DNA from: an uncultured Myxococcales bacterium
GTDB lineage: Bacteria; UBA10199; 2-02-FULL-44-16; JAAZCA01
Reading direction: 5' to 3'
NCBI GenBank assembly: GCA_964480565.1
Contig: CAYZSU010000002.1
Location: 3,367 to 67,366, forward strand
DNA: 64,000 nucleotides
Shown: in pieces, positions 31,900 to 54,686 of the stretch
Position numbering within the stretch: the first letter of the stretch is position 1
Layout of the letters: every line of letters starts with the position of its first letter
Notes under the pieces: model-generated
Told to the model about the DNA's origin: nothing
What the model saw: the letters and a program-made list of their open reading frames with translations, nothing else
The model's database searches: none
Made by a program: the position numbers and the translations under genes

Positions 31900-31910
31900 A
31901 AGAGAATAAA

Positions 31911-32040: not shown

Positions 32041-32130
32041 TTAAAAAACTGAATCTATACAACTTTCTTCAAAAATCAAATTTCTACTGGACAATCTCAT
32101 AAACTCATTATATTTAGTAAAACTCTATTT

Positions 32131-32217
32131 GGGGAGGTGGCCGAGTGGCTGAAGGCGGCACCCTGCTAAGGTGTTATACGGGAGACCGTATCGAGGGTTC
32201 AAATCCCTCCCTCTCCG
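32131..32217 (+). tRNA. tRNA-Ser (anticodon GCU), long variable arm. CCA not encoded.
   Basis: Folded by hand. Acceptor stem GGGGAGG/CCTCTCC (one G-U pair). D-arm GCCGAGTGGCTGAAGGC. Anticodon loop CTGCTAA. T-arm GAGGGTTCAAATCCCTC. Discriminator G. Confidence 0.9.
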
Positions 32218-32225
32218 CAACAAAA

Positions 32226-32252
32226 AACCCTCACTAATGTGAGGGTTTTTTA
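32226..32252 (+). terminator. Rho-independent terminator after tRNA-Ser
   Basis: AACCCTCAC-taat-GTGAGGGTT followed by TTTTTAT. Confidence 0.7.
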
Positions 32253-32354
32253 TTGCGGCAAAGGGTCGGTGAGAACGCTCACGTTCAAACAGGAATGGCC
32301 TATAAAAACAGAAATCCTAAAAATAACTGTGTAATTGCATAGGAAAAGACCTAT

Positions 32355-33565: not shown

Positions 33566-33660
33566 CGCTTATCCGGCAACCGATTGACCCGCTGCTCGTG
33601 TACAAGCAACGCACACACATATATATTATTGCGATTAATCTTTAGATTGCCCTCACAAAC

Positions 33661-34662: not shown

Positions 34663-34786
34663 AAATATAATCCCATCTATAAAAAATAATGGAGCAAATT
34701 CACTATTAAAAATAATTATATATCAATGAGTTACAAATATATATCGATTTTCTGAGGTATAGCTCGAAAAGACTACCAGTTCCAAT

Positions 34787-35476
34787 TTAATCTTTTTTCA
34801 TAATGAATAAATAATTAAATCCGCGCAAATAAAAATTGCCCTTCACCGCCTCATCCAAAAAATTCTTTCGTTTGAGTTTTTTATTATGGCGCACCACAGA
34901 AACAATATCGAGTGCCCGGAAGTATTTTTGTAATATTCCAAACAACTCAAAACCAATAGGTACAAACCCTTTTTTATTTTGATAGGTGTCGGACACATAC
35001 AATGCCATACAGCGCTTAGGCCGCATGATACGGTGAATTTCAGCAATCACCCGATGCATGGATTTAAAATAGTCCACCTCAAATGCAGATAGTTTACCAA
35101 TACATCGCTTATCATCGGAATAATCAATATGCGTGGAATATGGCGGATCGATAAATACAAAATCCGCTTTTTCATCCTCTAAAGGTAGCTTTCTTGCATC
35201 GGATCGAAAAATATCCTTTCGCGTGGGATTTAAGTCATAGCCCAATGCGCGCCGATTTAAGTCCCTAGCCACATCCAATGTCGTCCCGCTGCCACACATG
35301 GGATCCACGATTAAATCTTTTTTTCTTGTATAACGATTTAACAAGTTCCAAATAATATAGGATGGTGTTGCTCCTTCATAGTCTTTACTACCCTGTATTT
35401 CCCCACCATAATGTTGAGAAGGATAATCCCACAAAGTGGTACCATGCATGGGCACATTGTTTCTAGTATTATTCAT
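34787..35476 (-). CDS. Small SAM-dependent nucleic-acid methyltransferase (N6-adenine / N2-guanine amino-methyltransferase family; UPF0020-like)
   Basis: Motif I LIVDPMCGSGTTLDVA and motif IV FVFIDPPYS. No adjacent restriction endonuclease. Confidence 0.55.
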   Translation of the reverse strand: MNNTRNNVPMHGTTLWDYPSQHYGGEIQGSKDYEGATPSYIIWNLLNRYTRKKDLIVDPMCGSGTTLDVARDLNRRALGYDLNPTRKDIFRSDARKLPLEDEKADFVFIDPPYSTHIDYSDDKRCIGKLSAFEVDYFKSMHRVIAEIHRIMRPKRCMALYVSDTYQNKKGFVPIGFELFGILQKYFRALDIVSVVRHNKKLKRKNFLDEAVKGNFYLRGFNYLFIMKKD

Positions 35477-37619: not shown

Positions 37620-37633
37620 GAACCTTCCACGGC

Positions 37634-40600
37634 TTAAAAAGATGATCCGAATGATAGAATCAGCATTCCATATTTCACATTACCGCCGGTAATTGGATCT
37701 GCGAGTGCAGATACGCGATCTCGGTTTAAGACAACAATACCATAGCCCAAACGCCCATGAATTGGCAAGCCATGGCCAACAATAAAATCCCCTTTTAGTT
37801 CCGCACCCACACTTAATAAAAAGTGATCAAAGAAGTCAGAAGCACGATCGCAGCTCCCTGATGTAGAACTACAATGCGCATACCAGGCATTGCCATAGTC
37901 CGCAAATACAGCAGCACTAACACTTTTCAAAAAAAATGGCATAGTGCCTAGCCCTCGCTGAGGCGATACAATTGGAATACGAAATTCGGATGAAAATAAC
38001 ATGGCCCGCGTTGCAGAAAATGTAGATAAAGGAATACCCCTTAGTGGAAAATAGTGTAATGAACCTGAACTTGCCAACGTACCTTCGCCTAAATCGCCAC
38101 CCATGCCAAATGTGCCCTGCACTAGCGTATCTCCCCACGTAATGCCACCTGCACCACGAAGTGCGACAACATAATGATGTCCCAAAGAAATATACTCCCG
38201 CCAGTCACCTGCAAAGATAATCTGCTCATTGCGTGCACCGCTACCAAAGACCTCATTGCTAATCGATGTGCTCAACTTGATAGATCGTCCTTTTTCTGAA
38301 CTAATAGATGCTGCATAGCGCCGTGCATTATTATAGCCATATCGCAAACGAAAACCTGTAAAATAGCCCAAGTTCAACAAGTTTCGATTCGCAGCTGTTA
38401 AGTTATTTTTCACCTTATGATGCTCCAAAAAATAACTTAACGTAAATCCATGGCCTTTAAAACTTTGTGATGCAAAAACAGTGGCTGCTCGACGATGTTC
38501 ATATAAATGGACAATGCCTGTGCTTCCACCAAAGTTTCTATTTCCAAAATCCACGGCATAGTCCATCACTCTAAATCCGAAACGCGGACGAAACTGACTA
38601 TAAGTATATTGAAAACTACCCCCTATATGGCTGATATCGCTTCGATACTGCACACCGCCTATCCAAGTATGCCACCGCAGCGGATCCATACCGCCTGTAT
38701 TTAACCCCATAAACATGGTATCGCCAAAAATAAACATCGGCGCAATAAAGCGAGGTAATAGAAGGGATTTTCCAAACGGACGATAGGATTTTGTATCTTC
38801 AAATACATGGTCAATTTTTTCCTGATCTTGCTTGGATAATGTTAATTGTTTATAATCAATAATCGCGTCGCGTGACTCTGACCGATTGTGATGCAACTGT
38901 GCAAGCATTGGTGTTGCAGATTTTTTTGGCATTACCCATCTTGCAATTTCATAACCACCCGAATGATATCGCCTGCCAATAATGCTGCTTCCATATGGAC
39001 GCGTGGGCTGAAATATCCCGGTAAGTGTATTGGTAAGTGCTTTTTCATTTTCCCCCTTATAGGAAATCCGATATAAATTATTAACCCCATTTTGATCGGA
39101 GCTAAACACAATATATTGCCCATCTGCATTCCACATAGGCCGTGACTGAATAATACGCCCTTTGGCGGAACTTAGTGCCATTGGCATCTTACCATCACTA
39201 TTATATCGATATATTCGCCATCCCTTATCTGCCTGCCATTTGGATGCTACAATGTATTTTCCATCTGGCGACAACCGTGGATAGGCCAATTGCGTATAAT
39301 CTTCATCCGATGTTAAATACGTTACTTTGCGTGTTTTACGATCAAATACAGCTAGCCGATCAATCATAGCGCCTGATTTAACGAATAATACATGATCGGT
39401 ATCATGATAAAATTCAGGATCCTTCGCACGCATGCCAAATGTTAGACGCTTTATTTCATGAGACTCGCCATCAAATTTAATGGCATATATATCGGATACA
39501 AAACGATGCTTTAATCGACGCATTGTTGAGTAGAGCAATTGTGTCCCATCTGCACTCCATGAAAAATAATTGGCCTTGTGACCGCGTTTTAACATTTTTA
39601 TTTTTTTTGTTTCAAAATCATACAAACGTATTTCACTGGATTGATGCGGTGTTTGCACGCTATACACCAGCTTCTTTGCATCCGGCGACAATGTGGGTGC
39701 ATTCAGCTGCTCATCTTTTCCTTGCTCAATAATAGTTTGGTATGCAGATATCGGATTTTTTGACAATTCATCACGTTGAATTAAATAGCGATGCTTTAAA
39801 AAAGCATACCATTCATACCATAAATCATAGACACTTTTCCCATAAATACGCTTGGCATGATGGTTAATCATCGTTAACAATAAGGATGATCGAATTTGTT
39901 TATCCCATTTTAGAAAATTATCTTCACCATAAGCGTCGACCAACCAATGCACAAATCGCACACCATAAATATATGCTGCTGCACTCCCTGGATGACGATA
40001 CCCCAACCCATCTGCTTGATCAATTTTAGGGAATTTTTTCTCTAATACTGCGCTTCGCACCACCATATCACTATAAGTTCCTCGCCCTCGCCCTGCTTTT
40101 GTATAAATTGTTTCATCGTATTGTGCCAAACCTTCACGCAACCATATGGGATTTAAACCAGACGGTGCCGTTGTTTTACCAAGAAGATAACGAAAGGGCG
40201 TCCATAAACCACCATAAGCATCAATTTGTACAATGTGAGTAAACTCGTGAGTCAGCAATGTGCGCAACCAATCATCGTAATGGGCCAGTGATGATTCTGG
40301 ATCTGGCGGACCTGCATAAATGATCATCCAATTATATGGCAAGACACTCGCAATGCCATTGGAATCATCATGACTATCAATAAGAACCACTTCCGTGCGT
40401 CCCCATGGCTCAAACGACCATTTTTTTGTAATCTCCGGATAGATTTCTTCCAAAATAATGGCCGACTGTTTTGCAATCTGCTCAATTGATTTGGGATAAT
40501 TAATTTTAAAATGCTCTGTCTGCACACTTTGCCATGAAAGCGTTGGATCAAATATGCCTGCAATGGATGGCGAAGAAAAGAATAGTACGGATAATAAAAT

Positions 40601-40648
40601 TAACACTACAACAACCAGGTATAATTTAAATATTTTTCGCATGTCCAT
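37634..40648 (-). CDS. Large outer-membrane protein: N-terminal HExxH metallopeptidase-like region, TolB-like PD40 beta-propeller repeats, and C-terminal beta-barrel
   Basis: HEFTHIVQ...EGLAQYDET (HExxH plus downstream Glu). PD40-type repeats (LSPDAKKLVYSV, WSADGTQLLYST, LSPDGKYIVASK, WNADGQYIVFSSD). C-terminal ~350 aa of alternating amphipathic strands ending ...GMLILSFGSSF. Signal peptide from the ATG at 40648. Confidence 0.55.
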   Translation of the reverse strand: MDMRKIFKLYLVVVVLILLSVLFFSSPSIAGIFDPTLSWQSVQTEHFKINYPKSIEQIAKQSAIILEEIYPEITKKWSFEPWGRTEVVLIDSHDDSNGIASVLPYNWMIIYAGPPDPESSLAHYDDWLRTLLTHEFTHIVQIDAYGGLWTPFRYLLGKTTAPSGLNPIWLREGLAQYDETIYTKAGRGRGTYSDMVVRSAVLEKKFPKIDQADGLGYRHPGSAAAYIYGVRFVHWLVDAYGEDNFLKWDKQIRSSLLLTMINHHAKRIYGKSVYDLWYEWYAFLKHRYLIQRDELSKNPISAYQTIIEQGKDEQLNAPTLSPDAKKLVYSVQTPHQSSEIRLYDFETKKIKMLKRGHKANYFSWSADGTQLLYSTMRRLKHRFVSDIYAIKFDGESHEIKRLTFGMRAKDPEFYHDTDHVLFVKSGAMIDRLAVFDRKTRKVTYLTSDEDYTQLAYPRLSPDGKYIVASKWQADKGWRIYRYNSDGKMPMALSSAKGRIIQSRPMWNADGQYIVFSSDQNGVNNLYRISYKGENEKALTNTLTGIFQPTRPYGSSIIGRRYHSGGYEIARWVMPKKSATPMLAQLHHNRSESRDAIIDYKQLTLSKQDQEKIDHVFEDTKSYRPFGKSLLLPRFIAPMFIFGDTMFMGLNTGGMDPLRWHTWIGGVQYRSDISHIGGSFQYTYSQFRPRFGFRVMDYAVDFGNRNFGGSTGIVHLYEHRRAATVFASQSFKGHGFTLSYFLEHHKVKNNLTAANRNLLNLGYFTGFRLRYGYNNARRYAASISSEKGRSIKLSTSISNEVFGSGARNEQIIFAGDWREYISLGHHYVVALRGAGGITWGDTLVQGTFGMGGDLGEGTLASSGSLHYFPLRGIPLSTFSATRAMLFSSEFRIPIVSPQRGLGTMPFFLKSVSAAVFADYGNAWYAHCSSTSGSCDRASDFFDHFLLSVGAELKGDFIVGHGLPIHGRLGYGIVVLNRDRVSALADPITGGNVKYGMLILSFGSSF

Positions 40649-40812
40649 AAAATACTCAAACATAGTTAAAACCTCAACGTCTAAATAAAATAATATACGC
40701 CGATCCAATCATTTTTTTGATTGATGGATGCGGTATGTATTTGTGTTTTTTAAAAAACATTTCTACTATACGAAAACAATTATTTTATATCATAATGTAC
40801 GGGGGAAATAGA

Positions 40813-42558
40813 ATGACAATTGCAATCCATGTCACCCATGAAGCCATTGGAAAAATCGGCGGCATTGGGGCTGTACTTGAAGGCTTATTGCCTACTCCCA
40901 TATATCAAAAAACATTTCCAACAACCCTGCTCTATACGCCTTTATTCACAAAAGATGCCTTGCTTGAAAATCGCTTGGGCGATAATGCAGAGGTTCTATA
41001 TTCCAGCATTGACAAGTATGATAGCGATCACTGGTCTGATATATTTGCCCCCATTCAATCCATGTATGGCATTCATATTGTCTATGGTAAAAAAACATAT
41101 CAGCCTGCAGGGTCGCAATTGCAAACAGTCACTGATATTTTAGCGGTGGACATCGCTGATATGACGCCAAAATCCATCGATGCATTTAAGTATGCACTTT
41201 GGCAGCATTTTCAATTTCGCTCAGATAAATACAGCGCAGACACTGACTTTGAGCAGTTCTTACGCTTAGGAATTCCATTAACAGCCATTTTAGACAGCCT
41301 TTATCCAGAGCAGGCCGCACACATATTCTCACACGAATACATGGGTATGCCATCGGCATTGGCCATTAAGATCGCTCAAAAAAATAACTGCCGCATGCAG
41401 GATAAAACAATCTTCTATGCACATGAAATATGTACAGCCAGATCCATTGTTGAAAACCATCCTGGGCATGATCTATCATTTTATAATCTTTTGAATGCAG
41501 ATACTAGCGATGGCATTTCTATGGAAGATGAGTTTGAATCCTTTGCGCATTACTCGCGTAGCGAATTGGTCAAGCTTGCCTGCGAACTCGATCATATCTA
41601 TGCAGTAAGTGATATTACCAAACGCGAGTATCAATATCTTTGTCCTCATGTGGATATAGATAAAATTCATACTGTCTACAATGGCATTTCATACAATCAT
41701 ATTCCTTATAAGGAAAAACAAAAAAGCCAGCGATTGATCAAAACATATTGCGAATCATTGTTTAACTTTAAACCGGATTTTATTTTCACCCATGTCACGC
41801 GCCTGGTGCCGAGTAAAGCAATTTGGCGAGATATCCGTTTACTAGAGAGCCTCGACAAACACTTTGCAGCCAATCGTAAAAAGGGAGTTTTCATTTTACT
41901 CTCTACATTGATGGGTAATGGCCGCTGCAATGACGATGTACATCAAATGGAATTTGAATACGGTTGGCCCGTACTTCATAAAGAAGGATGGCCCGATCTT
42001 GTTTATTCTGAAGTTGACATCTACCGCTCACTGGAAATTTTCAATGCGCGATCGCAAGCCATCAAAGGAGTTTTCTTAAATCAATTTGGTTTTGATCGTT
42101 TACGCTGTGGCATGCGTATTCCAGAAAAAGCCAATTTTCTCCATTTACGCCAAGCCTCGGACCTTGAATTTGGAATGTCCATTTATGAACCTTTTGGCAT
42201 TGCCCAACTGGAAACACTTCCTTATGGAGGACGACCCGTAGTAAGCAGTGTATGTGGTTGTGCCTCCCTATTAAAACAGCATATGGAAAACAATGATCAC
42301 TTTATTATTGATTTCACCAAAGTGCCGGCCAAATTACAAAATGCCTTTCAGCATAAAAATGACTATAAACATATTTCAACTCAGCTACGTGATTTAGTAG
42401 AAACAGAAATTTGTAATGATGTTAGCGGGCAGTTATTTGAGGCATTGCCACACAATCAAATCAGCCGTCAAGCCATCTATGAACATATGCAGGATTATGC
42501 CAAACGATTGGATTGGAACGAAATCGCAGTCAATGTATGCAGCCCTTTTTCCAAATAA
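40813..42558 (+). CDS. Glycogen synthase, eukaryotic-type (GT3 family). Start ATG at 40813 with a GGGGGA Shine-Dalgarno sequence.
   Basis: N-terminal IHVTHEAIGKIGGIGAV matches the GT3 FEVAWEVANKVGGIYTV block. FGMSIYEPFGIAQLETLPYGGRPVVSSVCG matches GYS YYEPWGYTPAEC...G.PSVTTNLSGFG. Confidence 0.65.
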   Translation: MTIAIHVTHEAIGKIGGIGAVLEGLLPTPIYQKTFPTTLLYTPLFTKDALLENRLGDNAEVLYSSIDKYDSDHWSDIFAPIQSMYGIHIVYGKKTYQPAGSQLQTVTDILAVDIADMTPKSIDAFKYALWQHFQFRSDKYSADTDFEQFLRLGIPLTAILDSLYPEQAAHIFSHEYMGMPSALAIKIAQKNNCRMQDKTIFYAHEICTARSIVENHPGHDLSFYNLLNADTSDGISMEDEFESFAHYSRSELVKLACELDHIYAVSDITKREYQYLCPHVDIDKIHTVYNGISYNHIPYKEKQKSQRLIKTYCESLFNFKPDFIFTHVTRLVPSKAIWRDIRLLESLDKHFAANRKKGVFILLSTLMGNGRCNDDVHQMEFEYGWPVLHKEGWPDLVYSEVDIYRSLEIFNARSQAIKGVFLNQFGFDRLRCGMRIPEKANFLHLRQASDLEFGMSIYEPFGIAQLETLPYGGRPVVSSVCGCASLLKQHMENNDHFIIDFTKVPAKLQNAFQHKNDYKHISTQLRDLVETEICNDVSGQLFEALPHNQISRQAIYEHMQDYAKRLDWNEIAVNVCSPFSK

Positions 42559-42618
42559 ATTGCATTATATCTAATGAGATTACCTACAAAACAGCCATGT
42601 TGTAGGCAGTTCCATTAT

Positions 42619-42668
42619 GTGCAATCATGTGCAATCATGTGCAAAAGTGTGCAAAAGTGTGCAAAAAT
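42619..42668 (+). repeat. Five tandem 10-bp repeats GTGCAA(T/A)(C/A)(A/G)T, about 80 bp upstream of the TPR lipoprotein start
   Basis: GTGCAATCAT GTGCAATCAT GTGCAAAAGT GTGCAAAAGT GTGCAAAAAT. One helical turn per unit. Confidence 0.8.
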
Positions 42669-42748
42669 CAGTACAATTATCATTTTTTCTTGCCAAAAAA
42701 TCTCCATAGTCTATGACTCAAGAAACGACGAATAACGATGGAGAAACT

Positions 42749-43828
42749 ATGAACACTCATTATGCATGGATTGGCATTATTATCGCAATATTATGCAGCG
42801 TAACAGCATGCAATAGTGATAAAATTTTAGGAGATCAATCACGTATTGCAGGTACTAATAAAGGTTATCAAGAAAATGACAAATATCAATATGCAAAATC
42901 CTTATATGAGCAAGAGCAATATGCAGAAGCACTGGATTCATTTATAGAACTCGGGCACATATATCAAAAAAATGCGACTATTTTTAACTATATCGGCTTA
43001 TGCTACTATCATCTGGATAATTACGATCACGCATTAAAAAATTATAATCGCGCTAGCAGCTTATCACCCTTTTATGCAACACCGCTTCACAATATGGGGG
43101 TAATTTACCTTGAAAAAAATAATTATGAAACAGCCCTTGAGTATTTTTCAAAAGCAATTGCATGTGAAAAAGAAGATGATCCTTATACAGGAACTTATAT
43201 ATTGCGTGCGCGCGTTTTTTATTACTTGGAACAGTCTGTTAATGCACTCTCGGATTTAAGCACAGCAATTGAATTAGACCCAACATCCATACACGCCTAT
43301 GCATCACGTGCTGGCATATATCGACGCATGGGAGATTTTAACTCCGCACTCAATGATGCAAATACAATTATTCAAATGGATGATACGGAGATTGATGGTT
43401 ATATTTCCAGGGCATGGATCTATGCCAGCATGGATGATATTGATCAAGCAATCGATGAATTTGATATTGTTTACTCACATGCATCACCCAGTAAAATCCC
43501 AGTTCACAAATTGGCGCTTGTTGAAATGTTGATCATATTCAATCACTATGACAAAGCAATAGAGCAATTATTGTCACTTGAGCAAGAAAGCAACTTAGCT
43601 GAGAAAATAAACATTTTAATCAACTATCATCACGCCATACTTGCAAAAGTACAAAATAAAGACACAACACCATATGATCAATATTTAAATGATATGGCGA
43701 CAACCCCCATTACTCTTCACTGGAACTTTCATCTTATTGAAGAATGGTTAGACACTGTAAACTTACCAGAACACACCATTGACTATATTCGCGACAAAAC
43801 AGAGTGGATGCAGCATAAATTTTACTAG
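42749..43828 (+). CDS. TPR-repeat lipoprotein
   Basis: Lipobox ILCSVTAC. Several TPR units. GGAG Shine-Dalgarno sequence upstream of the ATG at 42749. Confidence 0.55.
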   Translation: MNTHYAWIGIIIAILCSVTACNSDKILGDQSRIAGTNKGYQENDKYQYAKSLYEQEQYAEALDSFIELGHIYQKNATIFNYIGLCYYHLDNYDHALKNYNRASSLSPFYATPLHNMGVIYLEKNNYETALEYFSKAIACEKEDDPYTGTYILRARVFYYLEQSVNALSDLSTAIELDPTSIHAYASRAGIYRRMGDFNSALNDANTIIQMDDTEIDGYISRAWIYASMDDIDQAIDEFDIVYSHASPSKIPVHKLALVEMLIIFNHYDKAIEQLLSLEQESNLAEKINILINYHHAILAKVQNKDTTPYDQYLNDMATTPITLHWNFHLIEEWLDTVNLPEHTIDYIRDKTEWMQHKFY

Positions 43829-44040
43829 GGCGTGTCCTCAATTCGTTTAAGAATCCACTAAATGCGTATAAATAGGCAAAAAAAGAAATTAATTCCCTAA
43901 TGCCATACATTTTTTGTCATCATCGGACTTGATCCGATGATCCATGAAACAACTGTAAACACTGGATTATCGGGTCAAGCCCGATAATGACAGATATTTA
44001 GATGTTCAATTGAGGATACGCCTTAAACCATCACTTAAAA

Positions 44041-44085
44041 TAAAAAAACCGCCATATATAATCATTCATATATGACGGGTTTTAT
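44041..44085. terminator. Bidirectional rho-independent terminator between convergent genes
   Basis: AAAAAAA-CCGCCATATAT...ATATATGaCGG-GTTTTATTT: imperfect palindrome flanked by an A-tract and a T-tract. Confidence 0.5.
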
Positions 44086-44102
44086 TTATAAAAGTAAAAT
44101 TA

Positions 44103-46700
44103 TTACCCCTTCCATTTCACATATTCAGGAAATACATGATGAAACAATGCATCGTTTGGCACAATTCGAACACCCGTTTCCTGCAATCCTGATCCTTTTA
44201 TATCTAGCTCAATATTATATTTCGCAACTTTATCATCATATGTTTCAACATATGTCATGGGCATATATTTATAGTCATTTAGACCTGCTCCATACTGATA
44301 AAACAGCTCTACATTAAATAAAGACATATCTGTATCACCTGTAAACACATAGCTATCAATCACAAGATGACCCTCTGTATGCAAACTCTTTTCATCCAAA
44401 ATTGGGAAAAAATCACGAATATGAACATCTGACCAATAGCGATCAATCAGTTCTTTATGCGCGAGTAAACGCTTTAATAGCTCCCCCTTATTATGGGTAA
44501 TGCGACTAGCCATATCCATCTGTGGCAAGTAAAAGCGATACAAATAATCTCGCACTGCGCGATGCATATTAAAACCCGACGATACTGTGGCAATAGATCG
44601 CTTCATCATGGATATCCACTTTGTCGGCACATCACCTTCACCACGATCATAGTATGTGGATGTAATATCATTTTCCAATAATTCGTAAATTTGATTGGCT
44701 TCCGCTTCATCAGCAATGTCATTATTGCAACACTCTTCACCCGCATTAATTGCCCAACCATTACTACCATCATAGGCTTCTGGCCACCAGCCATCAAGCA
44801 CACTAAAGTTCAATACACCATTAATACCGGCCTTCATCCCAGATGTACCGCTTGCTTCCATGGGTTTACGTGGATTATTCAACCATACATCCACACCCTG
44901 AACTAAATGACGACCAATATTAATATCATAATCTTCTACAAAAACGACATGATTCTCTACTGGATAGTCATTGATAAATTGAAAAATACGTTTAATTAAA
45001 TCCTTGCCAATACCATCTGCAGGATGTGCTTTCCCCGCAAATACAAGTTGCACAGGCCGTTCAGGGTTAGTTAGGATAGCGGCCAATCGCTCTGGGTCCA
45101 TAAAAATTAAATTCGCCCGTTTATATGCGGCAAAACGCCTTGCAAAACCAATGGTTAAATATTCTGGATTCAAGATACTACTGATATCCATTCGTTTGCC
45201 CTTACCAATGCCACGGTGCTTCGCCATTTTACGAAGTCGCCTACGAATAAATGATACATTTTGTTCTTTTCGACGTCGATGCGCATTCCATATTTCATTA
45301 TCTGGAATTGTATCCACCTTTTCCCATAATGAATCACTTTCCGCATTATGTAGATAATCAGGCCCCACATAGCGATCAAATAATTCAGCAAGCTGCAAAC
45401 TCAGCCAACTTTGAATATGCACACCATTGGTCACGCCTTCAATTGGATACTCCGTAGTATGGCGATTGGGATATAAGCCCTTCCACATACCCCGCGATAC
45501 TTCGGCATGCAATTCAGATACGGCATTGGCTTTTCGTGAAAATTGAAGCGCCAATGCAGATAATGAAAATGAGGCATCCTTAAAGACAATTTTCTTTGTC
45601 TTTTTATCATCTGAAACCATCTCTATTTTTTCTGTATTAACTTTTCCAAAGCATAATAAATCGTTCATGGAGATATGCAGCTCATTCGCAACAGGAGCTA
45701 AGTAATCTTGAATCAATTCATCATCAAAACTTTCATTTCCAGCAATTACCGGCGTATGCGTGGTAAACACAGTGCTGTATTGAATAGTCAGCTTTGCTTC
45801 TTCCATGGAATAACCTTTTTTGGTTAAACTCAATAATCGCTCAAAAATACTAAATGCCGTATGCCCTTCATTTAAATGATAGACTTTAGGAGTAATACCC
45901 AATGCGTTCATCGCAATGATACTACCACGCCCCACCAAGAGCTCCTGCTCTAAGCGCACACGACGATCCGAATCATACAACCGTGATGTAATATAACGAT
46001 GTTCAGGCTTATTTTTTTGAATATTCGTATCCAGTAAATACAGTGGCACTCGACCTACCTGAATCTTCCAGACCTTTGCATATATAATATCTTTTTTAAG
46101 AGGCACTTCAATTATAAGTGGCGTTTGATCGTCATTGAATACCTCTGAAATCGCCCGAAGATACCATTGTTGATCTTGATATTCCTCTACCTGAGTACCG
46201 TCTACAGAAATTTGCTGACCAAAATACCCCACGCCATACTTCAATCCAAAGCTCACCATATTACAACCAATATCAGAAGCTGCCTTTAAATGGTCCCCAG
46301 CTAAAATTCCTAAACCGCCAGAATATCCTGGAATCGATTCATGCAATCCATACTCCATACATAAATAGACGATCACATCATCGGATGAAAATGGTTTTGT
46401 TTCGCCATTTTCTTTGTATACACCTTCAAAGTTCATATAGCGTTTAAATTTATCATAGACGCTATTAACCTCATATATAAATCCTTCATCCTGAGCTATT
46501 TCATTTAAGCGCATTTCACCCACATTAAAGAGTACATCGATGGGACTATGATTGTGCTCCCGAAACAACTGCGGATTAATACGGTGAAACAATCGCTGAG
46601 CATCTTTATCCCAGCAAGACCATACATTCATTGCAATTTCGCACAATGGATTTAGTGAATCAGGTATGGTGGGCTTTACAAAAAAAGAGCATAAATCCAT
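44103..46700 (-). CDS. glgP: Alpha-glucan family phosphorylase (GT35, with DUF3417-type N-terminus)
   Basis: PLP-site block ASGTSGMKAGINGVLNFSVLDGWW. GT35 length and conserved blocks. Confidence 0.85.
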   Translation of the reverse strand: MDLCSFFVKPTIPDSLNPLCEIAMNVWSCWDKDAQRLFHRINPQLFREHNHSPIDVLFNVGEMRLNEIAQDEGFIYEVNSVYDKFKRYMNFEGVYKENGETKPFSSDDVIVYLCMEYGLHESIPGYSGGLGILAGDHLKAASDIGCNMVSFGLKYGVGYFGQQISVDGTQVEEYQDQQWYLRAISEVFNDDQTPLIIEVPLKKDIIYAKVWKIQVGRVPLYLLDTNIQKNKPEHRYITSRLYDSDRRVRLEQELLVGRGSIIAMNALGITPKVYHLNEGHTAFSIFERLLSLTKKGYSMEEAKLTIQYSTVFTTHTPVIAGNESFDDELIQDYLAPVANELHISMNDLLCFGKVNTEKIEMVSDDKKTKKIVFKDASFSLSALALQFSRKANAVSELHAEVSRGMWKGLYPNRHTTEYPIEGVTNGVHIQSWLSLQLAELFDRYVGPDYLHNAESDSLWEKVDTIPDNEIWNAHRRRKEQNVSFIRRRLRKMAKHRGIGKGKRMDISSILNPEYLTIGFARRFAAYKRANLIFMDPERLAAILTNPERPVQLVFAGKAHPADGIGKDLIKRIFQFINDYPVENHVVFVEDYDINIGRHLVQGVDVWLNNPRKPMEASGTSGMKAGINGVLNFSVLDGWWPEAYDGSNGWAINAGEECCNNDIADEAEANQIYELLENDITSTYYDRGEGDVPTKWISMMKRSIATVSSGFNMHRAVRDYLYRFYLPQMDMASRITHNKGELLKRLLAHKELIDRYWSDVHIRDFFPILDEKSLHTEGHLVIDSYVFTGDTDMSLFNVELFYQYGAGLNDYKYMPMTYVETYDDKVAKYNIELDIKGSGLQETGVRIVPNDALFHHVFPEYVKWKG

Positions 46701-46741
46701 AACAATCTCCCCTGTTATTTTTTTAAATTATATCTATATAA

Positions 46742-47935
46742 TTATAAGCGCTCGCGCAAATAGGCCACTGCATTCATGAAGAACATATAGGCTTGATGTG
46801 GTGTTTGATATGGTGAAAAGTATTTATGCACATCGCCATCTTGAAAATATTTTGTACACATATAATAGTAATGATCGGATGTGGATAGTCGACGCGCTGA
46901 TTCCATTAAATCGGTACGTCCTTTTTCTTTAATTTCACGAAATACATCATAAAATGATTCAATGGCATTATGCTGTAAATCATTTTCCAACCATGCCGAT
47001 AAATCACGTTCTGTATCTGCCCATGATACTGGATAGGGATAAGATAGCACTTCAGGCGCATAATTAAGAATATCAATAGCATCCGAAGGCCAAGCAAATG
47101 ACATATGCGGGTATTTAAATACCTGTTTGGGTAAATCACGCATAAAATCAAAAATACCTGTTTCTGCCCATTGATGCTCACCAAAGGTTTCATAATCCAT
47201 AAATAAGTTAGCAAATAAATGTTTATCCCCATGCTCAACCAAACTTAATTTAGATAGCCATTGTGAAAATTTATCCGCAGTTAACGGAAATTCTGGCCAC
47301 GCACGATTTGAAAATCGAAATGCAATATCATCTGCTAAACTATAATATTTTAACATCAGCAGCATATGATGATTTTGTGCCATATACGCATATAATGGTG
47401 AACGCCAGCCTAAAATTTTCTCCACACCTTCTGCTAAAATGACTTTAAAATCAGCCTCTTCCCACACTAAATTTGAAATTGCATCCTGATAAATCAGCTC
47501 TGTATTTCGAAATACAACAGGATCATATCCGAATTCATCCTGCATCAATTGTTTGTGCATACGGACTTGTGTTAAAAATTCTTCTTGATCATAAAAAAAT
47601 GACAATGAATGATAATATGTTTCACCAATAAATTCCACACATCCTGTACGTGCCAATTCTTTGAAAGATTCTAGCACTTCTGGATAATATTTTCGAAATT
47701 GCTCAATCGCCACACCTGTCACTGAAAATGCGATTTTTACACGCCCTTCATAACGATCGATGAGCTCTTTTAATAATTTATTAGTAGGTAAATAGCACTT
47801 ATCACCAACTTTTCGAACCACAGAAGCATTTAGCTTCTCATCGAATAAATCTGTATCTCGTCCAATATCCAATACATTTAAATGTCTGACTCGATAGGGT
47901 TGGTGAACTTGAAAGTAAAAGACTATATGGAGCAT
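46742..47935 (-). CDS. Glycoside hydrolase family 57 protein
   Basis: N-terminal FQVHQPYR signature of GH57. Confidence 0.7.
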   Translation of the reverse strand: MLHIVFYFQVHQPYRVRHLNVLDIGRDTDLFDEKLNASVVRKVGDKCYLPTNKLLKELIDRYEGRVKIAFSVTGVAIEQFRKYYPEVLESFKELARTGCVEFIGETYYHSLSFFYDQEEFLTQVRMHKQLMQDEFGYDPVVFRNTELIYQDAISNLVWEEADFKVILAEGVEKILGWRSPLYAYMAQNHHMLLMLKYYSLADDIAFRFSNRAWPEFPLTADKFSQWLSKLSLVEHGDKHLFANLFMDYETFGEHQWAETGIFDFMRDLPKQVFKYPHMSFAWPSDAIDILNYAPEVLSYPYPVSWADTERDLSAWLENDLQHNAIESFYDVFREIKEKGRTDLMESARRLSTSDHYYYMCTKYFQDGDVHKYFSPYQTPHQAYMFFMNAVAYLRERL

Positions 47936-49233
47936 ATGGTTTCCTTGTATACATCAATGGCTTTCACTGCAGCATCATACCAACCAATGGACAATGCTTC
48001 TTGTTGACCTGCTAGTGCAACGCTTTCTCTTTGTTTTGGATTTTCTAAAAGTTCTAAAATAACATTAGTCATCCGATCAATATCCCAGAAATCGATTTTA
48101 TAGGCATTGTGAATCACTTCTGACACACCGGACTGTTTTGACACAACAGCCACAGCGCCATAGGCCATAGCCTCTAAAGGAACGATCCCAAAAGGCTCTG
48201 AAACAGATGGCATAATAAAAATATCCGTTCCTGATAAAATCTCTTCCACTTGATCCCGATTTAAAAACCCACTAAACAGAAATCGATCTTTCAATCGCTT
48301 TGATGCTGAATTGTGTACCATACGATTAAACATATCACCACTACCTGCCATGACAAAACGCACATTGGGATATTTATCAAGCACGCGTCTGGCAACTTCT
48401 AAGAAATAGTCCGGTCCTTTTTGAATGGTGACTCGACCTAAAAAGAGCACCATGAGATCTTTAAATACTTTTCGCCGTTTTTTTCGAAGCGGTGACATCG
48501 AATAGGCATTATATACCACACGCACTTTTTTAGGATGAACCACATATCGATCCATAATCATTCGTGATGTATATTGTGACACTGAAATCACACGATCCGC
48601 AGAGGTTAGGCCCGCATATTCAATTTTATGAATTCGATCATCCCCCTCGCCACCAGAGCGATCAAATTCTGTGGCATGAATATGGGAAATCAATGGGATT
48701 TCCAATAGATCCTTTAACGGAACTGCGGCCGGATATGTCAACCAATCATGTGTATGAATCAAATCATACCCCAACAAGTTGTGCGCATTTTTCAATACTC
48801 GCTCTGTAAAAAATCGTACCTGCTTAAAAATATCCTCTTCGCCATATATATGTTCACTTAAATCATCGACCGCTTCCACTTTCCAATTAATTCGTTTATT
48901 TAAAATGCGATCTACTTTTTTTCGAATTTGTTGGGCAGGCGTCACATATGAATCAGGATACTGTTTATAGCCTAAATTAATCATGCGTTCCTGAACATCT
49001 TCACTCCAATTTTCTTCACAAATAGATTCCATTCGCTTGTCCATCGCAACATATGGCAAGTTATCCACATCATCCGGTGTACGTAATTGAAAAATGACAT
49101 TTTTTTCCGTGGGCAGTAGCATATCCACTTCCACGCCCAACTCCAAAAGTGCTCGGATTAATCCATAACATGCCATCCCCAATCCACCGGAAATAAATGG
49201 CGGAAATTCCCATGTTAGTAGCAGTATTTTCAT
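47923..49233 (-). CDS. Glycosyltransferase family 4 (GT-B), alpha-glucan-synthase-like
   Basis: MKILLLTWEFPPFISGGLG N-terminus and a C-terminal E-x7-E-like GT4 region. Confidence 0.7.
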   Translation of the reverse strand: MKILLLTWEFPPFISGGLGMACYGLIRALLELGVEVDMLLPTEKNVIFQLRTPDDVDNLPYVAMDKRMESICEENWSEDVQERMINLGYKQYPDSYVTPAQQIRKKVDRILNKRINWKVEAVDDLSEHIYGEEDIFKQVRFFTERVLKNAHNLLGYDLIHTHDWLTYPAAVPLKDLLEIPLISHIHATEFDRSGGEGDDRIHKIEYAGLTSADRVISVSQYTSRMIMDRYVVHPKKVRVVYNAYSMSPLRKKRRKVFKDLMVLFLGRVTIQKGPDYFLEVARRVLDKYPNVRFVMAGSGDMFNRMVHNSASKRLKDRFLFSGFLNRDQVEEILSGTDIFIMPSVSEPFGIVPLEAMAYGAVAVVSKQSGVSEVIHNAYKIDFWDIDRMTNVILELLENPKQRESVALAGQQEALSIGWYDAAVKAIDVYKETICSI

Positions 49234-49246
49234 GAATTCCCCTTAC

Positions 49247-51253
49247 CTATACATCCAATAGTAGATGTTCAATTTCCAATAGTGCAAATACATTTCTCGC
49301 ATATGCGCTACAACCTTTAGGCATGTATGGATCAATGCCATCCCATAGTTCTGCAACACTTGCCATCTCACCCTTTAAAAACCCATCCCGAAATACCCAT
49401 ACATATTCAGATAGGCGACGAATAATCAATTCTCGTTCCATTGTATTGGATAGCGCTTTTAATGCGAGCTTTACAAAGGGCAACATTAAAAATGGCCATA
49501 CAGTTCCTTGATGACATGCCAAGTTGCGTTGCCGCTCTCCACCCACATAGCGTTGCTTAAATGACGCATGATTTGGTTCTAAACTGCGAAGGCCATATGG
49601 CGTTAATAATCGCTCTTCTGCCAATTGCCAAATACGCTGCAGTTGATCTTTTTCTAAAAAATCAAACGGCAATGATGCTGCAATCACTGCATTTGGCCGA
49701 ATATCCCAAATCACACCTGTATTATCTATTCGATCCGCTAAGTAGTCATCTCCCATAAATCGCTGTAAGGACTGACGAACTTGATCACGAAGTTTTACAA
49801 TATCATCATATGTGGCATGAAGTGCATTGGATTGAAAGTCGGATAGTGTTAATGCGTCCGCCATCTCAATAAATGCACATAATCCATTATACCACAATGC
49901 ATTCACTTCAACAGGCTTGCCGCTACGCGGTGTCACTGGTTTTCCATTAATATCTGCATCCATCCATGTTAAAGCAAGATCATTATTGCGAATGCAGAGC
50001 AATCCATCCTCATCACAGAAAAATGGCAATGTCGCATCCAAATAATAATGAAGTACAATATCAACCATTGTTTGAAATAAAGCGCTATTTTTCAATTCAA
50101 ACGCGTGACTATGAATCAAAAACCATAGAGAAGCATCAATACTATTATAATTCCGTACTAAATTCTCTGATGCCAATTCATGTGGAATCAAACCATTTTT
50201 CTGTAAAGCCGCATATTTCTTTAATATCTGATGTGCAACCACTTTACCATTGGACGTATATTTCAAGCCACTCATACAGGTCATTGTATTCCGACCACTA
50301 AATGAATACCATGGATATCCCTTGGCAATATCACTCTTATTTACAATAAAATCATTGGCTGCAACCTCAAGCAATTGATAATAATCGGTTCGCTTAAAGG
50401 GCTCATTGTGCATAGCATTATGCGTTTCCAAATACGCATGCGCAGATGTGTTCTCAGGATGATCTTCCGGAGCAATCAATGATTTATAATGATGCTGCGC
50501 TTTTGCCACTTCAACCGCACAGTCTGTGACAGATGTATCAGAAAATAGCATCCACCGACTGGTATGTGGCTCCAAATGAATCATAATACGTACCGGTGAA
50601 ATTAAATCTTCAACAGATTGATAGCCGCGAGCAGCCTCAGTTGGGTAATAGATGGATTCGTAAATAGCCTTATCTTCCCATAGCTGCCCATCTTCAATAT
50701 ATCCAAATGCATTTATTTGATTATCTTCACGGCTTATTTGAAATGAATTTTCCTGAGCCTCATACGACAACTGTGTCCGATGCCATGTACCAGATAAGTT
50801 AATATCATAATGATTGCGCAAACTAAACTTTGGCCGGACAACTAAATCAATCGCTTGATCGCCAAGATTATTATATTTAACAACCACCGCATTTTTTCCC
50901 GGCACCATAAACAATTCACGTGAAATCATTAGATCCGGCATTGGCGGTGTTGTTGAATACACGGTACACGGATAGGGTCGCAACCATGTTTTTAATATTT
51001 GTGCATAGCCATGTGGAAAAATACAATTTGCATAATGGTTGGAATCCAAATGAAAGTTACTTCCTTCCAACTCAACCAACTCTTCCATACAGGATAAAAT
51101 ATGATGTTTATTTTCACTGTCCGTCGCTGCAATCAATAAACCATTATACTTTCGTTTATTGAGCATATTCCCAAAGCCAAGCGCATACCCGCCAATACCA
51201 TTGGTCAGCAGCCATTCTCTATCAGAAATTTTCTGAAAAGAACCACTTTTCAT
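49247..51253 (-). CDS. Amylo-alpha-1,6-glucosidase / glycogen debranching enzyme (archaeal type). Start ATG at 51253; the alternative ATG at 51271 runs through the poly-C/G tract.
   Basis: GDE N-terminal block EWLLTNGIGGYALG...RKYNGLL. C-terminal (alpha/alpha)6 barrel blocks. Confidence 0.8.
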   Translation of the reverse strand: MKSGSFQKISDREWLLTNGIGGYALGFGNMLNKRKYNGLLIAATDSENKHHILSCMEELVELEGSNFHLDSNHYANCIFPHGYAQILKTWLRPYPCTVYSTTPPMPDLMISRELFMVPGKNAVVVKYNNLGDQAIDLVVRPKFSLRNHYDINLSGTWHRTQLSYEAQENSFQISREDNQINAFGYIEDGQLWEDKAIYESIYYPTEAARGYQSVEDLISPVRIMIHLEPHTSRWMLFSDTSVTDCAVEVAKAQHHYKSLIAPEDHPENTSAHAYLETHNAMHNEPFKRTDYYQLLEVAANDFIVNKSDIAKGYPWYSFSGRNTMTCMSGLKYTSNGKVVAHQILKKYAALQKNGLIPHELASENLVRNYNSIDASLWFLIHSHAFELKNSALFQTMVDIVLHYYLDATLPFFCDEDGLLCIRNNDLALTWMDADINGKPVTPRSGKPVEVNALWYNGLCAFIEMADALTLSDFQSNALHATYDDIVKLRDQVRQSLQRFMGDDYLADRIDNTGVIWDIRPNAVIAASLPFDFLEKDQLQRIWQLAEERLLTPYGLRSLEPNHASFKQRYVGGERQRNLACHQGTVWPFLMLPFVKLALKALSNTMERELIIRRLSEYVWVFRDGFLKGEMASVAELWDGIDPYMPKGCSAYARNVFALLEIEHLLLDV

Positions 51254-51491
51254 ATTCCCCCCCCCGTACACCTCTTCATATGCAAATCACATAATTGAAA
51301 TAAAATATCATTAGCTTTAATTTTTAATCGAGTAATTATGATACTTAATTTGGATATTAATATCAGTACTTGATCATGAAAACAATATAGAAACACACAC
51401 TTATAACTTTTTTTTCAATTGAGTCACTTTTGTTTTGCGTCATTGTTCAAGAACGTGTACAAGACTTTTAAATAATTCATGGAGGAGAAAT

Positions 51492-51845
51492 ATGGCAAAG
51501 AAAATCGTAAAAAAAGTAGCTAAAAAAACAACAGCAAAAACAAAGAAAACAACGACACCAACAAAACGTACAACCAAAGCCAGCACGACTAAAACTGCTA
51601 CGAGCAAAACAGCTGTCACAAAACGGACACCCACAAAGCGAACAGTTAAAGCATCTACAAAGAATCAACGTCGCTTCACACTAACCGAAATTAATGCCTT
51701 AACACAAGTTCGTGCATTTGAGTTATACCAAAGCCGCACCAATACAGATGGCAATGAAAACTCTGATTGGCAAAGAGCTCAAGAACAAATCTGCATAGAA
51801 TTTGGAATTGATCTTAACACTGTATTAAATAAAAATTTCAAGTAA
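51492..51845 (+). CDS. Histone H1-like Lys/Thr-rich DNA-binding protein with C-terminal DUF2934-like motif
   Basis: GGAGGAG Shine-Dalgarno sequence. KK(V/T)AKKTTAKTKKTTTPTKRT... low-complexity basic region. C-terminal VRAFELYQSRTNTDGNENSDWQRAQEQI. Confidence 0.6.
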   Translation: MAKKIVKKVAKKTTAKTKKTTTPTKRTTKASTTKTATSKTAVTKRTPTKRTVKASTKNQRRFTLTEINALTQVRAFELYQSRTNTDGNENSDWQRAQEQICIEFGIDLNTVLNKNFK

Positions 51846-52422: not shown

Positions 52423-53394
52423 ATGCTACTACAATATATTCCTTTAAAAAATTTGAATGTTGCTGATGACAGCTACCGAATTACCTTTGCACCTGAATTG
52501 GATAACTTAAAACGTTCTATCAAGTCCGTAGGCGTTATTCAACCAATCAATATCAGGCACACAGCTGAAGGTACATTCCAAATCGTCACTGGGTATAAAC
52601 GCGTGCTTGTCATGCAAGAGATTGAACGTCAATCAGTACCAGCGCTCATTCACGAACCTGGAGATTTATCGCCCACACAAGCATTTTTGTGGAACCTTCA
52701 TGACAATGCAATCACACGCTCATTAAATCTAGTTGAAAAAAGCATTGCACTCAATAAGCTTCAGCAATTTTATTCCATTGCTGAAGATGATTTGGCCAAA
52801 CAATTCTTACCATTGCTTGGCATTGAGCCAAGCTATAAAATTTTACATCAGTTATGCGCGCTAGATCAACTTATTGAGCCACTCAAAACTCATATTGTTG
52901 AATCACAAATGGCATTATCATCTGCAGCTCGTATTGCTGACTTCTCACCAACGACGCAACAAGCACTATTAGCAGTGCTCTTACATATTAGACCCTCTAC
53001 AAGCAAGCTAAATGAATTACTATCCTTACTCCGTGAAATTTCAGCTCGCGATGGAATTACAGTGGAAGACATTTTAAGTCGTTATAAATTACTACAAGTA
53101 GTGGCCAATCCAGAGGCCACATCTGGTGAAAAAGTGGGCGCGCTCAGACAAGCATTGCGCGGCATTCGACTTCCACAACTCACACAACGCCAAAAGGAAT
53201 TGGCCAATCTCATACAAAATCTAGAATTACCTGATTCCGCAAAAGTAGTGGCAGACCCATACTTTGAAAACAATAATATGAAATTGGAATATCGATTTTC
53301 CAATCCAAAGGAATTGGATAGTTTAGTTAAAAAGATTCAAGATGCATTTTCAAAGCAAAAATGGCAGCAAATATTTGAATGGTATCGCAATTAA
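52423..53394 (+). CDS. ParB/Srx-fold (ParB-like) DNA-binding protein; no ParA partner in the window
   Basis: ParB N-domain pattern IPLKNL...YRIT...SIKSVGVIQPINIR...FQIVTGYKRVLVMQEI, followed by an HTH-like region. The arginine patch is GYKRV rather than GERRxRA. Confidence 0.5.
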   Translation: MLLQYIPLKNLNVADDSYRITFAPELDNLKRSIKSVGVIQPINIRHTAEGTFQIVTGYKRVLVMQEIERQSVPALIHEPGDLSPTQAFLWNLHDNAITRSLNLVEKSIALNKLQQFYSIAEDDLAKQFLPLLGIEPSYKILHQLCALDQLIEPLKTHIVESQMALSSAARIADFSPTTQQALLAVLLHIRPSTSKLNELLSLLREISARDGITVEDILSRYKLLQVVANPEATSGEKVGALRQALRGIRLPQLTQRQKELANLIQNLELPDSAKVVADPYFENNNMKLEYRFSNPKELDSLVKKIQDAFSKQKWQQIFEWYRN

Positions 53395-53507
53395 TAATAA
53401 GTTCAATAAAGTATTATTCTAACTGATACAATACTCAATTGAATTTATTCCCAACTCAGCAGATGGGTCATTTTTTAGCCCCCATAATGCGTCAGGGGAT
53501 AACAAGT

Positions 53508-54686
53508 ATGCATTCCCAAACCTCATCATTTTCTGTACAACCCTTAAAAACGCGACACCGTAAAAAGAAAACACTATTTCCTTTTTTACCAGAGCAAGTT
53601 TGGGTGGATCGAAATATAGTATCACATCCACAAACCATCCGTATTCTCAATCAATTACAAGATGCAGAAATAGACATCGTTGATAATATTCGTTCATTAA
53701 AAACACCCGCAAGCCTCAATATAGCCAAAAAACAACTTGTTCTCACTGAACACAAAGGGCATGCCTTTAAAGAATGCCAGGGTATCACTCCCAACCACCT
53801 GTGCTGTAATTACCGCACATTGGACTTAGTATCTGGCTGTCCCATGGATTGCAGTTATTGCATTTTGCAATCCTATCTAGCAAACAACCCCATCACCACT
53901 GTATATGTGAATTTGGAACAAATTCTCGACCAAGTGGCAAGCTTTCTAAAGTCAAACAAGGGTACCCATTTTCGTATTGGCACAGGTGAATTAGGAGATA
54001 GCCTCGCATTAGATCCAATCATCGATTATGCGAGTATTTTAATTCCCTTTTTTGCACAGCAAGACAATGCTGTATTAGAATTAAAGACAAAAACAAATTT
54101 TGTCGATCATATCCTAAAATTACGCCATCGCAATCGAACCATTATTGCATGGTCGATAAATACACCTGATTATATTCAAACAGAAGAAAGTCATACTGCC
54201 AGCTTAGAAAAACGGATTGAAGCGGCACAAAAAGTCATTCAAGCAGGATATCGTGTGGCATTTCACTTTGACCCCATTTTTATACTTAAGGACATTGATA
54301 CTGAGATGGCGGCATATCAAGATGTCATTGCCACTATATTCGAGCATATTGATCCACAGTATATTGCCTGGATCAGCTTAGGGCTACTTCGCTATCCAAA
54401 AAATTTACCTCAAATCGCAGAAAAACGATTTCCAAATACCCGTATTTATACGGGCGAACTCGTACCATCGGATTCAAAAGTCAGGTATTTGCGATTTATT
54501 CGTGAACACGCATATAAATTACTTTGGAATACCTTTCAAAAATATATTACCACCAACAAACTATACCTTTGCATGGAAACTCACACAGTTTGGCAAAAAG
54601 TAGATACATCCATTAACAGCAATGAATGCATTGATAAACGACTGTGCACACAGGAAAATGTTTTGTTTGATTTTAAAAATTTTTAG
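53508..54686 (+). CDS. Spore-photoproduct-lyase-family radical SAM protein (SplB-like)
   Basis: CxxxCxxC cluster VSGCPMDCSYCILQSY. Blocks YVNLEQILDQ and KRIEAAQKVIQAGYRVAFHFDPIF align closely with Bacillus SplB. The alternative start at 53439 is less likely. Confidence 0.65.
   Translation: MHSQTSSFSVQPLKTRHRKKKTLFPFLPEQVWVDRNIVSHPQTIRILNQLQDAEIDIVDNIRSLKTPASLNIAKKQLVLTEHKGHAFKECQGITPNHLCCNYRTLDLVSGCPMDCSYCILQSYLANNPITTVYVNLEQILDQVASFLKSNKGTHFRIGTGELGDSLALDPIIDYASILIPFFAQQDNAVLELKTKTNFVDHILKLRHRNRTIIAWSINTPDYIQTEESHTASLEKRIEAAQKVIQAGYRVAFHFDPIFILKDIDTEMAAYQDVIATIFEHIDPQYIAWISLGLLRYPKNLPQIAEKRFPNTRIYTGELVPSDSKVRYLRFIREHAYKLLWNTFQKYITTNKLYLCMETHTVWQKVDTSINSNECIDKRLCTQENVLFDFKNF

Follow-up and report, generated by a model that had tools for sequence, protein, structure and literature searches.

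Several described systems make and break down storage alpha-glucan. In the E. coli type, glgBXCAP supplies synthase, phosphorylase and debranching activities and includes glgC and two enzymes of glycoside hydrolase (GH) family 13, GlgB and GlgX. Canonical glycogen synthases of glycosyltransferase (GT) family 3, the eukaryotic type represented by Gsy2 and GYS1, also occur in PVC bacteria, Bacteroidetes, DPANN and Euryarchaeota; neither the origin of GT3 nor its patchy presence in prokaryotes is settled (PMC11046441, a 2024 Chem Rev review). In archaea such as Picrophilus torridus and Sulfolobus, genes for GT4, GH133 and GH57 enzymes lie in one cluster, with no classical branching enzyme or glgC alongside; no branching enzyme is known from TACK archaea, and since a Sulfolobus GH57 null mutant has low glycogen, the review raises the question whether the GH57 'amylase' might supply the missing branching activity (PMC11046441). 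A survey of carbohydrate-active enzymes in Cloacimonadota reported GH57 and GH133 and never mentioned GT3. Here we describe an alpha-glucan locus in 64,000 nucleotides (nt) of DNA from an uncultured Myxococcales bacterium (contig CAYZSU010000002.1, positions 3,367 to 67,366; this whole stretch is referred to as the window). This chromosomal contig, of marine origin, is also present in JGI sample 3300009008 and in the ENA assemblies of SAMN10231913 and SAMN10231914. The locus consists of a four-gene operon and a convergent gene, GTX581, for a glycosyltransferase of 581 amino acids (aa).

We consider it reasonably probable that the genes of this region form a chromosomal module for the synthesis and breakdown of an intracellular glycogen-like alpha-glucan, in which GTX581 is a distinct bacterial retaining glucosyltransferase of GT-B fold acting as a second synthase. 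We rest this reading on the genes present, on their similarity in fold and profile, and on the conservation of catalytic motifs and of gene linkage; from these we infer that the product is a glucan, how the two transferases share the work, which donor nucleotide is used, and a branching role for the GH57 enzyme. The five genes are as follows.

40813-42558, plus strand: GTX581, 581-aa GT-B glycosyltransferase, convergent on the operon
44103-46700, minus strand: GT35 alpha-glucan phosphorylase of DUF3417 type, 865 aa (PF11897 and PF00343, TIGR02094)
46742-47935, minus strand: GH57 enzyme, 397 aa (PF03065)
47923-49233, minus strand: GT-B glycosyltransferase on the GT4/GT5 border, 436 aa (Glyco_transf_5 N-domain and Glycos_transf_1)
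49247-51253, minus strand: GDE-type amylo-1,6-glucosidase, 668 aa (GDE_N and GDE_C; alternative GTG start at 51271)

The operon is read in the order GDE-GT-GH57-GT35, and the gene coordinates agree with those of an earlier note on this DNA, which had recognised a non-canonical, archaeal-style alpha-glucan gene set here. For the GDE gene the 668-aa start is the one chosen by gene callers. The gene of the 436-aa transferase begins 13 nt downstream of the GDE gene and overlaps the GH57 gene by 13 nt. A Pfam scan of every open reading frame (ORF) of at least 150 aa in the 64-kb window detected no NTP_transferase of the glgC or galU type, no GH13 branching enzyme and no GH13 GlgX, which agrees with the note on glgC and the branching enzyme and sets the locus apart from glgBXCAP.

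The core of the operon would be the GDE debranching enzyme, the GlgA-like GT4/GT5 transferase and the ~400-aa GH57 enzyme, extended here by GT35. GTX581 and the 436-aa protein would be two retaining transferases dependent on nucleoside diphosphate glucose. For GTX581, whose acceptor domain is of GT3 type, the most plausible task is elongation of alpha-1,4 chains, and one of the two transferases may start chains that the other extends. The GH57 enzyme may branch or trim the polymer, and the GT35 phosphorylase and GDE would degrade it. The GDE-GT-GH57 core, which is widespread in bacteria, is similar to the archaeal GT4-GH133-GH57 clusters in placing these three types of enzyme side by side, as judged from the published description (PMC11046441). 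The present cluster differs from the archaeal ones in being bacterial and in its extension by a DUF3417-type GT35 and by GTX581.

Fold, domains and conserved residues of GTX581

The AF2 model of GTX581 (pLDDT 90, pTM 0.90) was compared with the PDB by Foldseek. Hits 1 to 39 were all eukaryotic GT3 glycogen synthases (Gsy2, GYS1 and C. elegans GYS), with E values of 1e-22 to 1e-18, TM scores of 0.6-0.7 and ~660 alignment columns. The first match outside GT3 was Pyrococcus abyssi GlgA (E 6e-15). GTX581 thus has a GT-B fold whose nearest solved structures, over the full length, are those of GT3, at a sequence identity of 13-17%.

Profile-profile comparison by hhalign resolved this similarity by domain. 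We compared the GTX581 family with 20 GT3 N-half sequences, collected with the N-terminal of two Gsy2 fragments rebuilt from a HMMER alignment, and with 12 sequences of the 436-aa transferase family. The GT3 N-halves matched GTX581 residues 6-324, the entire N-domain (Prob 95.5, E 1.4e-8). The 436-aa family matched C-domain residues 260-578 only (Prob 96.7%, E 3.3e-10), with no detectable match to the GTX581 N-domain, and its own probability against the GT3 N-halves was 30% only.

The 21-sequence family alignment has 93 invariant columns. In the N-domain, invariant E10, K14, G16 and G17 (KxGG) align to GT3 WEVANKVGG; invariant H174-E175, followed by Y176, to Gsy2 HEW, the Glu being Gsy2 E169; invariant H204 and R210 to TTHATLLGR; invariant F223-Y224-N225 to DFYN; and N290-G291 to PNGL. 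The motifs in common can be written K-x-G-G, H-E-(W/Y), T-x-F-x-x-H...R, (D/S)-F-Y-N and N-G. In the C-domain, R330, K335 and E459-x7-E467 are invariant. The R330-x4-K335 spacing and the context of E459-x7-E467 are GT4/GT5-like, GT3 having R-x5-K, and this domain also aligns to the type represented by P. abyssi GlgA and GlgM. Ahead of E-x7-E, the element LFN..S..(V/I)K.(I/V)F..(E/Q)F is common to GTX581 and GT3 (IFNARSQAIKGVFLNQFGF versus LFNSPSDRVKMIFHPEFL in Gsy2). Both carry an insertion between the same C-domain strands, which is the family-specific invariant segment ME.EYGWP..H..GWPDL in GTX581 and the long tetramerisation helices in GT3.

GTX581 is also shorter than GT3 enzymes (roughly 640-740 aa). 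Its C-terminal 60 residues are variable, with R526, E530 and W568 alone conserved in the family alignment, and neither an R-rich helix corresponding to the glucose-6-phosphate-sensing arginine cluster of GT3 nor the phospho-regulatory tails of GT3 appear there. In Gsy2 the arginine cluster is R580-R591. The model and the alignments indicate that the N-domain (acceptor side) and overall fold of GTX581 are GT3-like and that its C-domain (nucleotide-sugar side) is nearer GT4/GT5 in sequence. We conclude that GTX581 belongs to a distant GT3-like family and is neither a canonical GT3 member nor GlgA.

Sequence models gave little signal for this protein. No Pfam family reached E 1e-3, and at E<=10 Glycos_transf_1 and Glyco_transf_4 alone appeared, at ~16 bits. 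NCBIfam GlgA models scored 18-29 bits with cutoffs above 300; on the bacterial GlgA model TIGR02095 / NF001899 the score was 22.2 bits, below the cutoff of 328. A phmmer search of the PDB returned A. tumefaciens GlgA at E 0.046, which is uninformative alone. More than 4,200 clusters at 90% identity match GTX581, nearly all of ~575-590 aa and labelled 'hypothetical'. Of 1.84 billion representatives at 50% identity, just 195 match the profile of the family at E<=1e-30, and relaxing the threshold to E<=1e-3 gives 661. With so few matches, the family is an island apart from the huge GT4/GT5 populations. Neither a signal peptide nor a membrane segment was found in the GTX581 sequence.

The earlier note had classed the 581-aa protein as a eukaryotic-type GT3 synthase and not a bacterial GlgA. 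Its nearness to GT3 holds for the fold and for the N-domain in hhalign; membership does not, PF05693 (the Pfam GT3 model, Glycogen_syn) giving no match even at E<=10. The motif offered as evidence, YEPFGIAQLE...SSVCG, is present in the protein. Its E-x7-E is common to GT3, GT4 and GT5, and the motif is closer to that of the cluster's own 436-aa transferase, so it does not discriminate between families. We regard it as highly unlikely that GTX581 is a canonical GT3 enzyme, laterally acquired from eukaryotes or archaea and using uridine diphosphate (UDP)-glucose. Eukaryotic GT3 enzymes are its nearest structures, canonical GT3 is known in the bacterial and archaeal groups named above, and galE adjoins members of the family at 7 loci, all of which would fit such an origin. 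Against it stand the silence of PF05693, the low identity to GT3 structures, a variable C-terminus lacking the arginine cluster and regulatory tails, and the separateness of a family found in many bacterial phyla. The GC content of the cluster moreover equals that of its flanks, and its nearest relatives share the whole cluster.

Relatives of 670-720 aa (P0441, P0452, P0456-P0458, P0466 and P0468) match profile positions ~150-577 only and have a different N-terminus of ~250 aa. As a bridge to Pfam GT3 they were rejected, none of them matching PF05693; they may represent a second subfamily.

The 436-aa transferase and its companion enzymes

The 436-aa protein has a full Glyco_transf_5 N-domain (PF08323, 76.9 bits versus a cutoff of 22.7, residues 2-230), a Glycos_transf_1 C-domain (PF00534, 121 bits) and both E-x7-E and R-x4-K. 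In the PDB it is closest to P. abyssi GlgA (1.8e-19) and next to the GT4 enzyme GlgM (5.4e-16). It scores below the GlgA cutoffs of TIGR02095 (113.8 bits versus 328) and TIGR02149, so that neither transferase of the locus is a GlgA equivalog by TIGR02095. P. abyssi GlgA, a GT5 enzyme of ~437 aa, is of the same size and has the lysine of K-x-G-G, where the 436-aa protein reads ISGG.

In the 436-aa protein a segment of ~90 residues, at ~45-140, also separates the first strand-helix unit from the remainder of the N-domain. Homologues from such clusters conserve this segment, for instance in its PESY motif, and it is presumably not part of P. abyssi GlgA.

The earlier note labelled the protein GT4; on these matches it is best described as archaeal-GlgA-like on the GT4/GT5 border and not as a generic GT4. 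It is a second candidate alpha-1,4-glucan synthase, so the cluster has two candidate synthases.

The GH57 enzyme, which starts with the HQPYR quoted in the earlier note, matches PF03065 at 2.7e-66 (224 bits versus a cutoff of 21.2). It has the signature regions of GH57, and in 18 homologues the candidate catalytic residues, E146 (RNTELIY) and D247 (FMDYETFGEH), do not vary, so that the family match is accompanied by the Glu of conserved region 3 and the Asp of conserved region 4. The ~397-aa family is very large, with at least 8,000 matching clusters, and very conserved, members from different phyla being 63-77% identical; they are annotated 'alpha-amylase' or 'GH57'. At sequence level no solved GH57 enzyme matched above noise. 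The structural model (pLDDT 79) fits all GH57 specificities about equally, its matches being to 4-alpha-glucanotransferase, branching enzymes, amylopullulanase and AmyC at E 5e-12 to 2e-8, and the structure allowed no choice among them. The model leaves the protein a candidate branching enzyme or amylase.

Two further enzymes named in the earlier note were compared with profile models. The DUF3417-type GT35 phosphorylase scores 761.2 bits on TIGR02094, above the cutoff of 191.7, and matches PF11897 at 2.6e-28. The amylo-1,6-glucosidase has both GDE domains well above cutoffs (PF06202 8e-67, PF12439 1.4e-46); on the archaeal-type model TIGR01561 it scores 241 bits, with a cutoff of 364.

Linkage of the GTX581 family to glucan genes

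A scan of species-representative genomes yielded 227 relatives of GTX581, from which 80 loci were kept, and neighbours were counted by tblastn with the window proteins at no more than 10 kb from the family member. The loci come from Thermodesulfobacteriota, Spirochaetota (including Brachyspira and Exilispira), Cloacimonadota, Delongbacteria, Planctomycetota, Poribacteria, Latescibacterota, Ratteibacteria and others; one cultured species among them is Thermodesulfobacterium hydrogeniphilum. GT35 was present at 27/80 loci, the 436-aa transferase and GDE at 20/80 each, and GH57 at 17/80. At least one of these four module genes occurred at 32/80 loci in many phyla, and at 12/33 loci with at least 8 kb on both flanks.

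Three or more module genes were found at 19 loci, in two architectures. Nine loci, e.g. in Delongbacteria, have a co-directional block GTX581-GDE-GT-GH57-GT35. The other 10 show the convergent arrangement of the window, including its closest relatives L005, L006 and L009, and the same five genes are kept in the nearest relatives. Unsupervised clustering of neighbouring ORFs likewise returned GT35, GT, GDE and GH57 as the top conserved neighbours; next in rank were a heterogeneous response-regulator cluster (17 loci) and lineage-specific genes in Thermodesulfobacteria. GalE stands beside the family at 7/80 loci and a nucleotide-sugar dehydrogenase at 5, and no pyrophosphorylase was linked to the family at the loci surveyed. 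The adjacency of GalE is a faint hint towards UDP-sugars as donor. In other genomes the GDE-GT-GH57 triad forms an operon without GT35 or GTX581, and therefore we regard these three genes as the conserved core.

In one close relative (L087 15301-20610 / L008, contig CAXXGI010000002.1), the GTX581 homologue stands ~10 kb away from the GDE-GT-GH57-GT35 operon. AbiEi/AbiEii toxin-antitoxin genes and an unannotated 586-aa ORF lie in the half of this interval next to the operon, as seen in L087.

Linkage bears directly on the idea that GTX581 is unrelated to alpha-glucan, for instance a cell-envelope or glycolipid glycosyltransferase, and stands beside the operon by coincidence. In the window the gene is on the opposite strand with a TPR lipoprotein gene between it and the operon, family members are annotated in some sources as 'glycosyltransferase involved in cell wall biosynthesis', and most of the 80 loci show no glucan gene nearby. 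We nevertheless find coincidence improbable. The linkage to GT35, GH57, GT and GDE recurs at 32/80 loci across phyla and in two architectures, five-gene blocks included, and by a rough estimate ~1% of randomly chosen genes would have GT35 at no more than 10 kb. GTX581 also lacks a signal peptide and membrane segment, and its fold and N-domain are of the glycogen synthase type.

Several observations weigh against our reading of GTX581 as a second synthase in a glucan module. PF05693, silent on GTX581 itself, weakly matches just 4/21 of its relatives (best 2.8e-6). The family profile searched against the PDB with HMMER finds GlgM (6tvp) first, at 1.5e-4, with Gsy2 behind at 0.018. No glucan gene lies within 10 kb at 48/80 loci, the window contains no recognised branching enzyme, and we found no assayed member of the GTX581, 436-aa transferase or ~400-aa GH57 families. 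Finally, the 436-aa transferase is itself glycogen-synthase-like, which leaves the specific role of GTX581 uncertain.

Alternatively, GTX581 could be a GT4-like enzyme making a small glucoside or primer that feeds or caps the pathway, with the 436-aa transferase as the sole polymerising synthase; we give this a minor but appreciable chance. The product might be maltose-1-phosphate, as for GlgM, a sucrose-phosphate or trehalose-type compound, or glucosylglycerate. GlgM (6tvp) is a GT4 maltose-1-phosphate synthase; Rv3032 is another mycobacterial GT4 glucosyltransferase. That GlgM is the top PDB match of the family profile would suit such a role, as would the C-domain, which is nearest GT4/GT5 and has their R-x4-K spacing instead of the R-x5-K of GT3, and the existence of the triad without GTX581 in some genomes. 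The resemblance to GT3, however, sits in the acceptor-binding N-domain, and the full-length fold match to GT3 spans ~100 residues more than any GT4 match. Furthermore, neither GlgE nor another consumer of maltose-1-phosphate was found in the window or among the conserved neighbours of the GTX581 family.

A wider proposal we put forward tentatively and think rather doubtful as a whole: the ~580-aa family could be a third, unrecognised class of prokaryotic glycogen synthase, a deep bacterial sister of GT3 that joins an acceptor domain of GT3 type to a donor domain of GT4/GT5 type, and together with a GlgA-like transferase and a branching GH57 enzyme it could form a complete pathway independent of glgC and glgB in many uncultured phyla. 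A widespread, slowly evolving bacterial family bridging GT3 and GT4/GT5 in glucan operons would, if real, serve as an outgroup for the origin of eukaryotic glycogen synthase and supply enzymes to test. The module also holds the ~400-aa GH57 type that has been raised as a possible missing branching enzyme in organisms without GlgB (PMC11046441). In Cloacimonadota, Delongbacteria, Poribacteria, Planctomycetota, Thermodesulfobacteriota and Spirochaetota the protein is annotated 'hypothetical', and glycogen capacity may be mis-scored. Taken singly, the triad, the GT35 phosphorylase and GT3 in bacteria are all known already; our literature search found no paper describing the ~580-aa family or its linkage to the triad.

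Chromosomal setting and neighbouring features

Three further features lie between GTX581 and the operon genes.

42617-42668, no strand: 10-bp tandem array (Tandem Repeats Finder and sequence reading)
42713-43828, plus strand: TPR lipoprotein gene (TPR_1/TPR_2 matches, lipobox), between GTX581 and the operon
44078-44049, minus strand: intrinsic-terminator-like hairpin, a 13-bp stem followed by TTTTTTTATT, a T-run

The hairpin, a strong one, lies directly past the GT35 stop codon and marks the end of the four-gene operon. The earlier note had described the cluster as split by a TPR lipoprotein gene with a 10-bp array upstream, and both elements are indeed there. The TPR protein has a signal peptide with the lipobox ...ILCSVTAC and TPR_1/TPR_2 domains. 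A place for this gene in the glucan system was rejected, as none of the 80 related loci has a homologue; judged by this comparison it is a lineage-specific local insertion between GTX581 and the operon. The array consists of ATGTGCAATC in 2.8 copies and then TGTGCAAAAG in 2.9 copies (Tandem Repeats Finder scores 56-62); its five TGTGCAA cores keep an exact 10-bp phase and lie 45-95 bp before the TPR gene. The array could represent phased binding sites or a promoter element prone to slippage, and it is not part of the glucan module. Rfam and tRNA scans gave no match inside the glucan cluster.

The note had also suggested lateral acquisition of the gene set. The GC content is 0.36-0.40 across the cluster, equal to that of the flanks, and about 0.39 throughout the window, and the Pfam scans revealed no mobile-element genes flanking the cluster. 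The remainder of the window is housekeeping in content, with a full dcw cluster, dnaB, ribosomal proteins and tadA. The dcw cluster is complete at 9491-27469 on the minus strand (mraW, ftsI, murE, murF, mraY, murD, ftsW, murG, murC, murB, ddl, ftsQ, ftsA and ftsZ), and therefore the glucan cluster sits in the core chromosome. Recent acquisition is unsupported, because the GC content equals that of the flanks, the surroundings are housekeeping genes and the nearest relatives keep the same five genes; with no GC anomaly and no flanking mobile-element genes either, recent horizontal transfer was rejected.

Directly upstream of GTX581 and divergent from it, at 35493-40708, a 708-aa TPR + SLT lytic transglycosylase adjoins a 1024-aa Tricorn/TolB-like beta-propeller protein. 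The top NCBIfam match of the 708-aa protein is the spirochaete flagellar-assembly type BB0259, at 151 bits and below cutoff. The region before this pair, 31156-35476, contains a small PT-HINT (pretoxin) fragment ORF, a tRNA-Ser(GCT) at 32131-32218, a 333-aa unknown ORF and an N6/N4 DNA methylase, and may be the remnant of a toxin or restriction island beside a tRNA. On the far side of the operon, at 52423-54686, a 323-aa ParB-N-domain protein is followed by a 415-aa radical-SAM protein similar to spore-photoproduct lyase, an unusual pairing. The ~600 bp before the GDE gene, between these genes and the operon, carry an imperfect direct repeat of 21 bp (AAAACAACAACAAAAACAAAG in two copies, 51525-51565), which falls inside a 117-aa hypothetical ORF without a Pfam match.

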